Positions 8,356 to 12,740 of a stretch of 64,000 nt of DNA are shown here, piece by piece. The stretch is taken from NCBI GenBank assembly GCA_963749655.1, contig CAVVOB010000021.1, positions 50,786 to 114,785 of the forward strand. Reading direction: 5' to 3'. The first letter of the stretch is position 1. Each line of letters starts with the position of its first letter. Position numbers and translations under genes: made by a program. The stretch is from Nitrospirota bacterium (GTDB lineage Bacteria; Nitrospirota; UBA9217). The notes beneath the pieces were generated by a model. It did no database searches, was not told where the DNA came from, and saw only the letters and a list, made by a program, of their open reading frames with translations.

Positions 8356-8864
8356 CTACCATCGATTTTCATGCACCCGCGAGGCATCAAATCGGTCAGT
8401 CGCAGTCCTGGTTTCCTCGGGAAAACCCAGCGGGACTAGGGAAAAGGGAACAACGGTTTCCGGCAGCAAAAAAGCTTGCGAAAGTTCGCGACACGGTCAT
8501 CGGTCGGGTAGACACCGCACCACACCGCGCCCAGGCCCTTTGCATGGGCCGCGAGCAGCATGTTCTCCGTTGCCGCCGCACAATCGAGCACCCAGTGACC
8601 GGCGTAACGTTCCAGGGCCGTATCGCCGCAGACGAGAATGGCGACCCGGGCATGCTTCAGCATCGCCGAGTAGGGATGGAATTCCATAATCTTGCCGAAG
8701 ATCGCGGGATCGGAAAGGACAATGAAATGCCACGGCCGCTCATTGCCCGCTGACGGCGCGCTCATCGCGGCTTTCAGGACGTCGTTGACGGCGTCAGGGG
8801 ACACCTGCTTTGCCGCGTAGAGCCGTATGCTGCGTCGCGTAAATATCGCCTCGAGTGCGTCCAT
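8356..8864 (-). CDS. Nitroreductase family protein (apparent 1-base deletion in the A-run at 8468-8473)
   Basis: MDALEAIFTRRSIR, APSAGNERPWHF, DCAAATENMLLAAHAKGLGAVW. Adding one T restores LLPETVVPFSLVPLGFPEE...RFDASRVHENRW-stop at 8356. Confidence 0.9.
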
Positions 8865-8995
8865 GGTGCACCTTCCTTTCAAGAGCTGCTGTCAGCGGCC
8901 AGCCGTCAGCTTTCAGCTTGAACCAAGAAGAGACAAAACTCCTGATTTTTTACTGCTTGCATCGATCTATGCTTTGACACAAGCTGACCGCTGCT

Positions 8996-10060
8996 TTACC
9001 CCATGAAACACTGCGGGTCGTCGGCAAGAAAGTCCTCTCCGCCTTGAGCGCGGGAATAGGCATAAGCGATCGCCCTGCAGCCCCTGCAGAGCGCCCAGCG
9101 GCTGCAGCTCCCGCATTTCCCCGTGTATCTCTTCCGGTCCCTGAGCGCCTCGAGCACGGGAGAGGCGGCCCAGACCTCCCGCAGGGAATCGCGCCTGACA
9201 TTGCCGAGCGAAAGGGGAAGCCGTCTGCAGGGCAGCACGTTGCCGTTCGGTTGAATGGTCAGCCCCGACACACCGGCTGCGCAGCCGCTTACCGCCGTCG
9301 CGCCCGCGTCTCCGTTCGCGGCGATCTTCATCTGCGCCGCGACGGGATCGCCGGTAGTAATATCGAGGTTGACGATCTCCAGGGACAGGAGCGACTGGTA
9401 CAGCTCCCGGAGCGGCTCACGGTCGAGCATGCAGGACATCAGCGTCCGTCCCTTTCCCGAGGGAACCAGGCGGGAGAACCCGATGCGCTGCACGCCGGCA
9501 TGGGAGCCGAAGGCCACGACTTTTTTCGCCTGGTCCGCGTTCAGGCTCGAGAGTGTGATATTGAGGGTCACGGCGAGGCCCGCGTCGACGAGCCGCTCGA
9601 TCCCCGCTGCGGCAGCGGAAAAGCTTCCCCCACCACGGATGGAGTCGTGAACATCTTCCGGACCTTCGATACTCACCTGCACGCCCTTGACGCCGAGGTC
9701 CGCGAGCTTCCGGGCGCGCACCTGGTCCACGAGCGTCCCGTTGGTCAGGAGGAACACGTCGAATCCGGTGTTTTTGATCTCCGCGAGAATGTCGAACAGA
9801 TCGTGCCGCAGGAACGGCTCTCCTCCCGTTACATTTATGCTTCGGGTAAAAGCCATATCGTAGGTCTCGGACCATGCATCGACCAGGTCCGCGGCCTCAT
9901 GCAGGGCTTTCCGGATTTCCGAAAGGGACATCTCGTCGATGCCGCGCTCGCCCTGGTAGCAGTGCCGGCACCAGAGGTTGCAGCGTTCGGTGAGATGCCA
10001 CTGAAAAAAGAAATCAAAGGGCTTGTGGTCTGGCTGACCGTTATGACGGTTAGTAAGCAT
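8996..10060 (-). CDS. Radical SAM/SPASM domain protein, putative peptide maturase
   Basis: QWHLTERCNLWCRHCY (CxxxCxxC), TGGEP, LTNGT. SPASM cysteines in GCAAG...NGNVLPC...GKCGSC....CRGCRA...DPQC. Confidence 0.93.
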   Translation of the reverse strand: MLTNRHNGQPDHKPFDFFFQWHLTERCNLWCRHCYQGERGIDEMSLSEIRKALHEAADLVDAWSETYDMAFTRSINVTGGEPFLRHDLFDILAEIKNTGFDVFLLTNGTLVDQVRARKLADLGVKGVQVSIEGPEDVHDSIRGGGSFSAAAAGIERLVDAGLAVTLNITLSSLNADQAKKVVAFGSHAGVQRIGFSRLVPSGKGRTLMSCMLDREPLRELYQSLLSLEIVNLDITTGDPVAAQMKIAANGDAGATAVSGCAAGVSGLTIQPNGNVLPCRRLPLSLGNVRRDSLREVWAASPVLEALRDRKRYTGKCGSCSRWALCRGCRAIAYAYSRAQGGEDFLADDPQCFMG

Positions 10061-10092
10061 GATTGATGGCAGTTAATGCGATTCCGGAAAAG

Positions 10093-10308
10093 TTACGACG
10101 GCACAGGCCGGAGCGCCCTGCATAGGAAGCAGGCGTCCTCACCCGGTCTGGCCGCCGGGCTCGTTTGTGTTGCTGACCAGCAACATCAGGTCTTTCAGCC
10201 TTTTCATTTGTGACAAAACAGGCCGGGGCTCGATTTGGCCCGCTCTTTCAGGGCCTTCCAATATGCGGCTTCCTTGAGAAGGACCTCCCTGCTCACATTC
10301 TTCTTCAT
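10093..10308 (-). CDS. Putative selenocysteine-containing RiPP precursor peptide with three in-frame TGA codons (40 aa if the third TGA is the stop, 71 aa if all are read through)
   Basis: SD GGAGGTG 8 nt before ATG 10308. Translation is MKKNVSREVLLKEAAYWKALKERAKSSPGLFCHK*KG*KT*CCWSATQTSPAARPGEDACFLCRALRPVPS-TAA. TGAs at 10206, 10197 and 10188. A SECIS-like hairpin follows, and the TAA lies 32 nt upstream of the rSAM/SPASM gene. Confidence 0.7.
10141..10185 (-). promoter_or_regulatory. Candidate bacterial SECIS element(s)
   Basis: Perfect stem UGUUGCU-GGUC-AGCAACA (10185-10168), similar to the E. coli fdhF minihelix GGUUGCAGGUCUGCACC. Second hairpin GCCCGG-CGGCCAGA-CCGGGU (10160-10141). Confidence 0.62.
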
Positions 10309-10343
10309 CCGGTTCTCACCTCCCTTCGCTCCGCATAAAATAA

Positions 10344-10352
10344 AGCATAGCA
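10344..10352 (-). promoter_or_regulatory. Possible extended -10 promoter for the peptide/rSAM unit
   Basis: TG-C-TATGCT on the minus strand, ~35 nt upstream of the peptide ATG. Confidence 0.35.
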
Positions 10353-10407
10353 TATTCCGGCAGTGCCGGACGACAGTCGCAGATACTCACCGCGCAGGAC
10401 TTGATTC

Positions 10408-11169
10408 TCAGGGATGGGCGACAGGCCGTCGTGTAAGCAGAGCTGCGGCTTCGCGATCGATCATCCACGTGACCGTGCCGCGCTCCGGCTTTACGAGCCC
10501 GGCAGGACAGCGTTTCGGATTGCCGTCTTCGAGGATCTCGTGCAGCACAGCCGCCTTTGCGCTGCCCGAGAGGAGGTACAGGACCTTTGCCGCATGGTTC
10601 AGGACCGGGAGCGTCAATGACACACGGTTCAGGTCCGGCGGTTCACGGAAGACGGGAACGGCAAGCCGCGTTCGTTCGCGCAGTGCCGGCGATCCGGGAA
10701 ACAGGGACGCTGTATGACCGTCTGCGCCAGCGCCGAGAAGGACGAGATCGAACACGGGGTAGCTTCCCTTGCCGAAATAGGAAGACAGGGACACCTCGTA
10801 CTCCCGGGCCGCTGCTTCCGGGTCCGCTTCTCCGCGGATCCGGTGTATGTTTCCTTCCGGGATCATGACCTCGTCGAGCAGCGTTCTCTTCAGCATCCCG
10901 AAATTGCTGTTCCGGTCGCCAGGGGGCACGCACCGCTCATCGGTCCAAAAAAGGTGAAGCGAGGACCAGTCGATGCGTGCGCGGTAGGGGTCCGCAGCAA
11001 GGATGCTGAAAAGCCGTTTCGGCGTCGTTCCGCCGGACAGCGCAACGGCGACTCCACGCGCTGGTTTGTCCTTCTGCTCCGAGCAGGAAACGACAACATC
11101 GGCAGCCGCGCTGCTCAGGTCCTCGATGCTGTCGTAGACGCGCACCGCGGGATGTTCATCCTTCCTCAC
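10408..11169 (-). CDS. pgl: 6-phosphogluconolactonase
   Basis: [39 protein letters not shown]. Start overlaps the zwf stop. Confidence 0.95.
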
Positions 11170-12740
11170 AGCTGTCTCCAGGACCGGCCGTCCCGCCCGA
11201 TCAGCTGCTGCGCAACCGAAGGCCCGGCAGTGCCGGCGGCATAACGGGGAATGGTTGCTGCCGTGAGCGAGGCATCGAGTTTCTCGATCGCCGGCGAGAG
11301 GATCGCCCAGGACCGCTCCACATCATCCTCGCGGGTGAAGAGCATATGGTCGCCCTGCATGCAGTCCAGGAGCACCCATTCGTAGGCATCGAGCTCCACG
11401 TCCCGCGGATAGGAGTAGTCCATTACCACGGGAGCCAGGCAGACCTTCGTACCCGGCAGCTTTGCCTGGAAAATGAGGCTCATTCCGTCGTCGGGCTGCA
11501 CCCTGAGCACTAGGACGTTGGGCTCGATGGGTCCCTCTACCGTAGGAGGAAAGAGGAAGTGCGGGACCTGGCGGTAGTGGATCGAGATCTCGGTTATGCG
11601 ACGGGGAAGCCGCTTGCCCGAACGAAGATAAAAGGGCACGCCGTTCCAGCGCCAGTTGTCGATCAATATTTTCATGGCCGCGAACGTGGGGGTCTTTGAT
11701 TGGGACGATACACCCTGCTCCTCGCGGTAGCCCGGCACGGACGCGCCCTGGATGGCACCGCGGTCGTACTGGCCCACGGCGATGAATTCGTCCAGCTTGT
11801 CCGCGGGGAAGGGGCGGATGGAGCGGAACACCTTGATCTTTTCATCCCGCACCCGGTCCGCCTCGAAACCTGCCGGCGGCTCCATGGCCGTGAGCGCGAG
11901 CAGCTGAAACATGTGGTTCTGGAACATGTCGCGGATCACACCGGCATCCTCGTAGTAGCCGGCGCGGTGCTCGATGCCGAGGGTCTCGGCGGCTGTGATC
12001 TGCACGTGGTCGATGTAGCGCCTGTTCCAGAGGGGCTCGAAGATCGAGTTTGCGAAGCGGAACATCAGGATGTTCTGGACCGTTTCCTTCGCAAGATAAT
12101 GATCGATGCGGTAGATCTGACTTTCCTTGTAGTAGGTATGCATGAGCGCATTCAGCTTACGGGCCGATGCGAGATCGCTGCCGAAGGGCTTTTCCACGAC
12201 CACCTGGCTCCGGCCTTTTTCCTCGCTTGCCAGTCCTGTGGCGCCGAGATTGTGGATCACATCCTCGAATACCGTGGGCGGGATGGCGAGGTAGAAGAGG
12301 CGGTTTCCGCCGGTCTGATGCTTCTTCTCCAGCTCCGGGAGCCGGTCCCGGAGGTCCCGAACATAGGAATTCCGGTTGCCGTAGTCGAAGGTGGAGTAGT
12401 ACAGCTGGGGGGCGAAAGCGTCCCAGGCCTTGGGGTCGAAGTCACGCGGCAGGGCGATCTTCACCGCCTCCTCCATGGCGGTCCGAAACTGCTCCGGGGT
12501 CATCTCGATCCGGCTCGTGCCAAGGATGAAGAAGTGTCCGGGCAGGATACGGTTCTTGAAGAGCCGGTACAGGGAGGGAAGGAGCTTTCTTTTCGTGAGG
12601 TCCCCCGATGCGCCGAAAATGACGATGCCCGCAGAACGCGGAATCTCCATGTCGCAGTTCCCGATGGTCCGGTACTCAGGCTCTTCCGGGGAGCTCCGCT
12701 CCAGCACCGCTTCACCGCCTTGTTTATCATGCTGCTCCAT
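11166..12740 (-). CDS. zwf: Glucose-6-phosphate 1-dehydrogenase
   Basis: [55 protein letters not shown]. Confidence 0.97.

Follow-up and report, generated by a model that had tools for sequence, protein, structure and literature searches.

A 64,000-nucleotide stretch of the genome of a Nitrospirota bacterium (contig CAVVOB010000021.1, positions 50,786 to 114,785; hereafter the window) carries a small gene of 40 codons (10189..10308, minus strand) in which two in-frame TGA codons very probably specify selenocysteine (Sec, U). The gene that comes next encodes a radical S-adenosylmethionine (SAM) enzyme with a SPASM domain (8996..10060, minus strand). Comparison of genomes indicated that these two genes are a cassette. 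The explanation that best accounts for the data, and that we consider likely, is that a peptide with two Sec residues is produced from the first gene and matured by the SPASM enzyme encoded by the second. The two genes and the signals in front of and between them lie on the minus strand of the window, and coordinates are those of the window.

Two in-frame UGA codons and the end of the peptide gene

The initial annotation described a leader-like open reading frame (ORF) opening with a Shine-Dalgarno site and an ATG at 10308, interrupted by three in-frame TGA codons and running to a first in-frame TAA at 10095-10093. The window sequence agreed with each of these points. The Shine-Dalgarno site GGGAGGTGA (10316..10324) is strong and lies 7 nucleotides (nt) 5' of the ATG (10308-10306); the motif (A)AGGAGGTGA occupies the same position in nearly all loci examined. 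The leader MKKNVSREVLLKEAAYWKALKERAKSSPGLF is followed by TGT CAC AAA TGA AAA GGC TGA AAG ACC TGA TGT TGC TGG. Translation with TGA as Sec, together with alignments of 29 and 38 sequences, gave a 40-residue peptide, MKKNVSREVLLKEAAYWKALKERAKSSPGLFCHKUKGUKT, made of a helical, lysine-rich leader and a C-terminal core C32-x-K34-U35-x-x-U38-K-x. The first UGA is codon 35 (10204..10206), the second is codon 38 (10195..10197), and codon 41 (10186..10188), which is TGA in the window, is the stop codon.

When the enzyme was searched for in the window's family (64 genomes), 38 genomes returned a homolog, and 30 of the regions upstream of these homologs were translated in three frames, an inspection that the initial annotation had proposed. 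The same small ORF was found upstream of 29 of the 30 homologous radical SAM genes, the exception being locus L035. Codons 35 and 38 were TGA in 29/29 of these loci, and codon 41 varied (TAA 18, TGA 9, TAG 2). In a larger set of 64 homologous loci, codon 41 was TAA 33 times, TGA 22 times and TAG 7 times; two loci had one or two extra codons before the stop. These 64 loci were chosen by a pattern requiring both TGA codons, so that the invariance of codons 35 and 38 rests instead on the pattern-free upstream translations and on searches with a hidden Markov model (HMM) that read through stop codons. In the HMM searches all full-length matches contained two TGA codons, in the family, in the phylum and in a second phylum. 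Both TGA codons were also present in the shorter matches of the phylum sample, which were read by eye, and four short matches in the sample of the second phylum showed '1 TGA' (G676, G648, G704, G776). Replacement of either of the first two TGA codons by TAA or TAG was never seen.

The sequence that follows the first UGA varied in the manner of a coding sequence. The two residues between the UGA codons were KG, KS, NS or SS, position 39 was K or R and position 40 was S, T or A. Wobble changes occurred in the Lys and Gly codons downstream of the first UGA, and Ser was written in codons of the AGY as well as the TCN family (position 40: 57 AGC/AGT, 2 TCG; position 37: 17 AGY, 1 TCC). Insertions and deletions within the ORF were whole codons, and the spacer between the stop codon and the following hairpin varied from 0 to 3 nt. 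Collectively, the changes in residues, wobble positions and Ser codon families and the whole-codon indels indicated that translation continues beyond the first UGA, and the coding conservation past this codon for which the initial annotation had called was thus present. Mean column identity of the peptide was 80% within the family (29 sequences) and 66% across the two phyla (38 sequences); M1, E13, W17, C32, K34, U35 and U38 were invariant across both phyla in the alignment of 38 sequences.

Two products had been envisaged in the initial annotation, a 40-residue form with two Sec (..CHKUKGUKT) and a 71-residue form with three, and only the shorter one withstood the comparison. The longer product would have three Sec followed by two Cys and a second CxxC motif (CFLC), and the frame of the window is indeed open to 10095-10093 if all three TGA codons are read through. 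Against this form, codon 41 was TAA or TAG in 40 of the 64 homologs, the spacer to the hairpin changed length, and the downstream 'protein' was unconserved in any frame. The hairpin, 0-3 nt after codon 41, would be too close to act on it by known spacing rules. The CFLC motif, which had been counted as part of the peptide, lies inside a non-coding, terminator-like hairpin. We give the 71-residue form next to no credence; because codon 41 is TAA or TAG in homologs and the frame is lost after it, the third TGA is read here as a stop and the ORF as one of 40 codons.

Immediately after this stop codon lies a hairpin with the properties of a selenocysteine insertion sequence (SECIS), TGTTGCT-GGTC-AGCAACA (10168..10185), 18 nt long with a perfect 7-bp stem, at the place where the initial annotation had noticed it; the stem covaries in homologs. 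In 50 of 52 loci the stem started 9-11 nt after the second UGA and 18-20 nt after the first. The loop always contained GGT, mostly GGTC, and the stems differed between lineages (GTTGCT/AGCAAC, GTTGCC/GGCAAC, CTGCC/GGCAG, GCCGCC/GGCGGC, GTTGCA/TGCAAC). Alignment with MAFFT followed by RNAalifold misaligned the hairpin loop owing to differences in loop length between loci, and covariation was assessed in a covariance-model alignment of 62 hairpin matches (56 distinct sequences), which was fitted to the structure and thereby favours pairing. In the 56 distinct sequences 99.4% of cells paired, compensatory changes were found in 6/6 pairs, and 0/500 shuffles reached the observed value; slid controls of the hairpin alignment collapsed.

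Sec machinery, whose presence the initial annotation had asked to be confirmed, was found in the genome of the window. This genome (G000) contains selA (611 bits), selB (367 bits) and tRNA-Sec, all three on one contig, and a selD gene that itself contains Sec. The selD gene (G000:C21:1685-2611, minus strand, L010) lies on the same contig as the window and outside it, encodes the active site SCAGU with an in-frame TGA, and is provided with a hairpin with the same apical GGTC 25 nt after its UGA.

By HMM the peptide was detected in 37 of the family's 64 genomes; in samples of 401 genomes each, it was present in 73 from the phylum, covering at least 12 families, and in 22 from a second phylum, that of a genome titled Syntrophus. 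The records of close relatives are titled 'Nitrospirota bacterium', and the enzyme also led to loci that carry the peptide gene, adjacent to that of the enzyme, in records with the titles Syntrophorhabdaceae, 'delta proteobacterium', Desulfuromonadales and Syntrophus. Within the phylum sample selA was detected in 68 of the 73 peptide carriers as compared with 193 of the 401 genomes overall, and families without selA (0/76, 0/28, 0/40 and others) had no peptide.

Two genomes of a single genus, G048 (L039) and G047 (G047:C3:9828-10814), have an internal TAA in the enzyme gene. The first keeps the peptide gene and shows neither selA nor selB; the second has selA and no peptide. The absence of selA and selB from G048, together with the TAA in its enzyme gene, suggests that the system may be decaying there, and the two genomes may represent stages of its loss or decay.

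The prediction in the initial annotation that gene callers would miss or shorten this ORF was borne out by the databases. All 26 inspected entries (24 of other lengths and 2 of 34 residues) terminate in C-H/R-K, where the first TGA stands. In an index of 5.8 billion proteins the peptide formed at least 173 clusters, and among the 120 listed clusters nearly all were of 34 residues, the only name was 'hypothetical protein' and none had a Pfam domain. The extra residues in the 24 entries of other lengths came almost always from an earlier start codon, one entry having a one-residue insertion. The window behaves in the same way: the ORF list made with genetic code table 11 gives a 49-residue ORF (10204-10353, minus strand) that opens at an ATG farther upstream (10353) and closes at the first TGA, and an N-terminal over-extension of this kind is seen in database entries of 41-64 residues. 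No model of NCBIfam (release 20, June 2026) or Pfam fitted the peptide when 29 members were searched with E up to 10, models of SCIFF and other radical SAM target peptides included.

A number of observations speak against Sec decoding or leave it less secure. The initial annotation had named TGC or TGT aligned with TGA in homologs as the decisive sign; no Cys was found at codons 35 or 38 in 802 genomes drawn from both phyla or in the 120 clusters listed out of at least 173 in the database, and such Cys forms are the usual criterion for selenoproteins, albeit not an obligatory one. A metatranscriptome contig of 196 nt (X4 record 20), about 95% like the window, has G for A at plus-strand position 10197, which turns codon 38 from TGA into CGA (Arg) at a depth of 2.3; this contig may contain an error or may represent a variant without the second Sec. 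The spacing from the first UGA to the hairpin is longer than canonical, and in two lineages with insertions the hairpin is farther off still (16 and 25 nt in L079; 32 and 41 nt in L084). For comparison, the SECIS of E. coli fdhF has a GGUC loop and is spaced by about 11 nt. We know of no experimental demonstration that one bacterial hairpin serves two UGA codons at different distances. A scan of 8500-11500 against Rfam, a collection that includes bacterial SECIS models, found no SECIS family with E up to 10, its sole match being a chance one to CRISPR-DR20, and the whole intergenic RNA of the window folded no better than shuffles (z = -0.26). Five of the 73 carriers, all metagenome-assembled genomes (MAGs) with a completeness of 63-96%, had no selA and selB above cut-off, G048 being one of them. 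Finally, every named relative is a MAG, and a cultured carrier did not come to light.

Two further observations concern the same codons. A weak profile match at L085 (G317:C16, ~64533-64610; E = 0.0014), QGTVCHKCKAEGC, has Cys at the place of Sec; it stands in another frame context with no close enzyme homolog adjoining, and is probably a chance match. No sequencing run contained half of the stretch, and what the runs contributed were contigs of relatives, in which gaps in coverage carry no meaning. Among them, contigs from RNA libraries span the peptide gene (X2 record 9 and X4 record 20); RNA libraries can contain DNA, and such contigs are for this reason no proof of transcription.

Some of these points would suit a simpler account, according to which the ORF ends at the first TGA to give a peptide of 34 residues (..CHK) and the conserved 45 nt that follow are a regulatory RNA, an attenuator or a protein-binding hairpin. 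All 26 inspected database entries are annotated in this way. The silence of the Rfam models, the lack of Cys homologs and the one RNA contig with CGA at codon 38 would all agree with it, the codons between the two TGA codons are strongly conserved at the nucleotide level too, and they allow a weak stem of 4 bp to be drawn. A plain stop codon would nevertheless be expected to alternate, in the manner of codon 41, between TAA, TAG and TGA, and codons 35 and 38 are always TGA. The switches between AGY and TCN Ser codons and the whole-codon indels lie past the first TGA, and the frame breaks only after codon 41. The confinement of the peptide to Sec-using lineages, with no carriers in selA-free families, and the apical GGTC that its hairpin has in common with that of this genome's selD argue in the same direction. 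We consider the 34-residue account very improbable, and hold with high confidence that the peptide with two Sec is real.

The peptide as probable partner of the radical SAM/SPASM enzyme

The gene next to the peptide gene encodes a probable maturase of 354 residues (8996..10060), and its identification as a radical SAM/SPASM gene in the initial annotation was upheld by both expected Pfam domains: PF04055 matched residues 23-170 (83.7 bits, cut-off 29.5) and PF13186 matched residues 260-319 (44.1 bits, cut-off 21.5). Conserved or nearly conserved cysteines comprise the CxxxCxxC motif (C27, C31 and C34) and seven SPASM positions (C260, C278, C316, C319, C325, C328 and C351), arranged as C260-x12-G-x4-C278 ... 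C316-x2-C-x5-C-x2-C328 ... C351. By analogy with known SPASM enzymes, seven cysteines for two auxiliary clusters would leave one iron of auxiliary cluster 1 without a protein ligand. Since the CxxxCxxC motif begins at residue 27, no N-terminal peptide-recognition domain fits in front of it.

The enzyme scored below every NCBIfam cut-off, its best match being AhbD (TIGR04545; 181.5 bits as compared with 500). Identities as NirJ, GeoRSP, ACGX, MftC, SbtM and AhbD were each considered and set aside, the scores being far under the cut-offs. The closest solved relatives by sequence were SkfB (6efn, 2.4e-22), PqqE (6c8v), anSME and CteB (5wgg). In the sources the enzyme is named 'radical SAM protein', 'radical SAM protein with 4Fe4S-binding SPASM domain' or, in some JGI entries, 'AdoMet-dependent heme synthase'.

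The occurrence of the two genes was closely linked. Among the 64 genomes of the family, 36 had both genes and 25 had neither; the enzyme gene alone was found in two (G039 and G047) and the peptide gene alone in one (G053), where it lies 65 nt from a contig end. In other families the enzyme gene was still 3' of the peptide gene in 20 loci, and zwf, pgl, pal and the nitroreductase gene, which are neighbours of the cassette in the window, were gone. The exceptions to adjacency were an orphan second copy (L080) and a frameshifted third copy (L082) in one genome (G343), and L083 (G177).

Genome G343 has three copies of the peptide gene (L080, L081 and L082), one of which has the enzyme gene next to it. 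The orphan copy is followed by FtrD-like (PF10080) and NosL-like (PF05573) genes, and the NosL-like product has a His/Met-rich stretch; these neighbours are a single hint at metal handling. In L082 the leader is frameshifted and lies beside a fragment weakly like the enzyme (38% identity over 72 residues).

Binding of the peptide to the enzyme was modelled by co-folding the enzyme with the 34-residue table-11 form of the peptide in the presence of SAM and three 4Fe-4S clusters (alignments of 49 rows for the enzyme and 41 for the peptide), the rows being the window's proteins and proteins from database searches. The interaction prediction score from aligned errors (ipSAE) was 0.88 in 3/3 runs, and the best of three controls reached 0.00. 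In the calibration of this procedure the mark was reached by 58 of 80 solved complexes and by 2 of 110 mismatched pairs. The predicted local distance difference test (pLDDT) of the partner was 79-80, and the runs had at least 85% of their contacts in common. In the models a leader helix (residues 9-20) lies on W63, Y67 and R294-S300 of the enzyme, positions that are invariant or nearly so, with the invariant leader residues E13 and W17 contacting the invariant W63, R294 and W297. Val31 and Cys32 of the peptide contact G259-C260-261, that is, the first SPASM cysteine. The models support, but do not demonstrate, binding of the leader to the enzyme and a placement in which the enzyme would hold Cys32 near auxiliary cluster 1.

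We consider it probable that the peptide is the substrate of the enzyme, a reading that has to be weighed against several facts. The co-folded peptide stops at Lys34, so that both Sec residues are outside the model, and peptide-bound SPASM maturases have already been solved, so that part of the co-fold score may be memory. The enzyme is without a recognisable recognition element (RRE) domain of the kind associated with peptides that are made on the ribosome and modified after translation (RiPPs). A tblastn-based synteny comparison of flanks of 0.3-1.5 kb showed no conserved third gene, protease, transporter or exporter beside the pair.

The same facts raise the question of whether the two-Sec selenoprotein could be something other than a substrate: an accessory subunit of the enzyme (an electron or selenium donor, a cluster- or metal-binding partner, or a chaperone for a different substrate), or a lone redox or soft-metal-binding peptide whose gene is merely co-regulated with that of the enzyme. 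The C-x-x-U-x-x-U core resembles iron-sulfur and metal-binding motifs, and the whole 40-mer is conserved, leader included, to a degree (80% in the family, 66% in two phyla) that is more typical of a small protein than of a disposable leader. The lack of a conserved protease or exporter near the pair and the copy in G343 that stands without the enzyme gene beside FtrD-like and NosL-like genes favour a role other than substrate, and the interface in the co-fold would suit a stable subunit equally well. On the other side, the nearest characterised and solved relatives of the enzyme are peptide or protein maturases, and the gene layout is the usual arrangement of precursor and maturase. Conserved, housekeeping SPASM substrates also exist, namely SCIFF, PqqA and MftA. 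The modelled position of Cys32 at the first SPASM cysteine coincides with the substrate site of thioether maturases as given in PMC10177961. An accessory or unrelated role is on balance unlikely, and the peptide is treated below as the probable substrate.

Expression signals and neighbouring genes

A promoter-like extended -10 box, TGCTATGCT, lies about 35 nt upstream of the ATG (10344..10352). Its assignment comes from conservation: in most members of the window's own family the box TGCTATGAT or TGATATCAT follows a T-run at the same place, and more distant loci show a TTGACA-N17-TGnTAnnAT promoter. A simple consensus scan called no minus-strand promoter at 10344..10352.

Between the peptide and enzyme genes, a long GC-rich hairpin followed by TAACTTTTCC (10096..10157) is terminator- or attenuator-like, with a predicted energy of about -34 kcal/mol. 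Many homologs have hairpin arms GGCAGATATG...CATATCTGCC and then a T-run at the same place (e.g. L037, L071, L073, L089 and L095), as seen mostly by eye; a crude automatic count of terminators found a T-rich tail in 14 of 64 loci. The sequence of the arms is kept beyond what pairing demands, which exceeds the need of a plain terminator and makes a binding site possible. Taken together, the strong ribosome-binding site, the promoter-like boxes and the hairpin look like those of a small gene that is strongly expressed and from which read-through into the enzyme gene is attenuated, as far as sequence can tell. A small, highly expressed gene followed by an attenuating hairpin and an enzyme gene is the usual layout of a precursor and its maturase.

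Upstream of the cassette, the window contains a pentose-phosphate operon (gnd, tal, zwf and pgl). Downstream of it are a short ORF of the nitroreductase family, an OmpA/Pal-like gene and a tetratricopeptide repeat (TPR, CpoB-like) gene. The nitroreductase-family ORF (148 residues, PF00881; 8436-8882, minus strand) comes directly after the enzyme gene, and was found in this position in 12 of 29 other loci of the family (L012-L040) and in 0 of the loci examined from other families. Nitroreductase-fold dehydrogenases act in some peptide maturation pathways; the linkage of this ORF to the cassette is weak.

Proposed maturation and relation to known systems

A sequence of events can be proposed for the cassette. 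The promoter-like box and the very strong ribosome-binding site would drive the first gene, and the single SECIS hairpin after the stop codon, with its apical GGUC, would direct Sec insertion at both UGA codons, which are 9 nt apart. SelA, SelB, SelD and tRNA-Sec of the genome would serve as the machinery, and the terminator-like hairpin would reduce read-through into the enzyme gene. The leader helix would then bind the surface formed by the SPASM domain and the core of the enzyme, with the peptide core threading towards auxiliary cluster 1. There, a selenolate or thiolate could take the open iron of the cluster, which has three conserved Cys ligands, and the 5'-deoxyadenosyl radical could abstract a hydrogen from a neighbouring residue, leading to a Se-C (selenoether) cross-link.

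This chemistry is modelled on the sactipeptide and ranthipeptide maturases. According to PMC10177961, PapB and Tte1186 form selenoether bridges in synthetic peptides substituted with Sec, the selenium being bound to the iron of auxiliary cluster 1. Formation of a selenoether specifically by the enzyme described here is the likeliest single chemistry in our view, yet a doubtful proposal and clearly less probable than the role of the peptide as a substrate. Decarboxylation at the C-terminus or heterocycle formation (as for MftC and SbtM) and epimerisation, all known from this branch of enzymes, are possible alternatives.

On the strength of the conserved adjacency of the genes and of the co-fold, we take the product to be a putative RiPP or natural product. 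The lack of a conserved exporter or protease, the core-gene setting and the high conservation of the peptide argue for a housekeeping role like those of SCIFF, mycofactocin and PQQ. The product is thus probably intracellular and of housekeeping type (redox, metal-binding or cofactor-like), and no secreted antibiotic. With no Cys form found in more than 800 genomes or among the listed clusters of the 5.8-billion-protein index, selenium looks obligatory, and the chemistry of the product should accordingly need selenium itself. We tentatively suggest, as an idea that falls a little short of being an even bet, a strictly selenium-dependent housekeeping product of Nitrospirota- and Desulfobacterota-type anaerobes. 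It could be a Se-C cross-linked peptide, or a diselenide or selenylsulfide macrocycle acting as a redox cofactor or a binder of soft metals, for which sulfur would be no substitute. Its precursor, decoded at two UGA codons with one hairpin, would define both a new class of selenopeptide and a new case of Sec decoding.

The initial annotation had supposed the system to be probably undescribed, and it does appear to be so. No description of the cassette was found in the literature, including PMC13188914, PMC13326102 and bioRxiv 10.1101/2022.07.06.499078 in the parts of these works that were accessible; supplements and some relevant papers fell outside this scope, and the cassette may be mentioned there. 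The accessible part of the BSepDB text mentions no radical SAM or peptide family. If the reading given here is true, the peptide belongs to a new selenoprotein family that every annotation pipeline shortens. Annotators could adopt a model for it, and natural-product chemistry would have an enzyme possibly capable of installing Se-C bonds on a genetically encoded substrate. The use of one hairpin for UGA codons at 9-11 and 18-20 nt would bear on the spacing rules of SelB and SECIS in bacteria. The question of what selenium does in a peptide that sulfur cannot would become directly testable with a 40-mer and one enzyme.

Several curated systems resemble the cassette in part. By full-length alignment, similar size and SPASM layout, the enzyme is like AhbD, the 'AdoMet-dependent heme synthase' of TIGR04545; unlike AhbD, its gene is tied to a peptide gene and stands with no heme genes, and the AhbD name carried by some entries is most likely an over-annotation. 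MftA/MftC and PqqA/PqqE share the combination of a small conserved peptide with a SPASM enzyme, and the peptide is in both cases modified near its C-terminus to give a product used intracellularly. The enzyme scored 143.6 bits with MftC and 88 bits with PqqE, far under the cut-offs of 265 and 381, and those systems involve no selenium. They also need more conserved genes (an RRE chaperone, peptidases and oxidoreductases), none of which is conserved here.

SkfB, the CteB/Tte1186-SCIFF systems and PapB likewise employ SPASM or twitch radical SAM enzymes, SkfB being the best PDB match. SCIFF is a short, highly conserved, housekeeping-like peptide. The natural substrates of these thioether maturases use Cys where the peptide described here has Sec, the enzyme is without their N-terminal recognition domain and scores below the NCBIfam cut-offs, and a cross-link would be formed here by analogy with theirs. 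In such maturases the chalcogen of the substrate binds auxiliary cluster 1, as described in PMC10177961.

Among selenoproteins, a 2026 review (PMC13188914) lists, in the sections available, UXX-star families (NF041114 and NF041211) and UxxU motifs in NF041115 and in the FmdB-family TIGR02605. The peptide resembles these in the U-x-x-stop ending, in the U-x-x-U spacing and in the single hairpin region that follows. None of their models matches it, and those sections describe no radical SAM/SPASM partner for them.

To our knowledge, the only precedent for a ribosomal precursor with encoded Sec beside a radical SAM/SPASM maturase is SbtA/SbtM, in which SbtA is the precursor, presumably TIGR04081. 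The system, said to have been described by Lewis et al. in 2021, reportedly comes from anaerobes and has Sec near the C-terminus, as in the cassette. With SbtM (TIGR04082, 'thio(seleno)oxazole modification radical SAM maturase SbtM') the enzyme scored 127.9 bits against a cut-off of 350, and only model positions 199-516 of 516 were covered. Because the alignment starts at position 199, the enzyme is without the N-terminal ~200 residues of SbtM. The peptide differs from SbtA in having two Sec (C-x-x-U-x-x-U) instead of one and a lysine-rich helical leader, and it has no NCBIfam match. Collectively, the sequence comparisons place the cassette outside SbtA/SbtM, AhbD, MftC, PqqE and the other curated SPASM systems, since it fails to qualify for membership of any of them. 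It is unusual in three respects: Sec appears to be obligatory and without Cys forms, two Sec stand three residues apart, and one hairpin goes with both UGA codons. If this reading is true, the peptide would be, after SbtA, the second known kind of natural Sec-bearing substrate of a radical SAM maturase.

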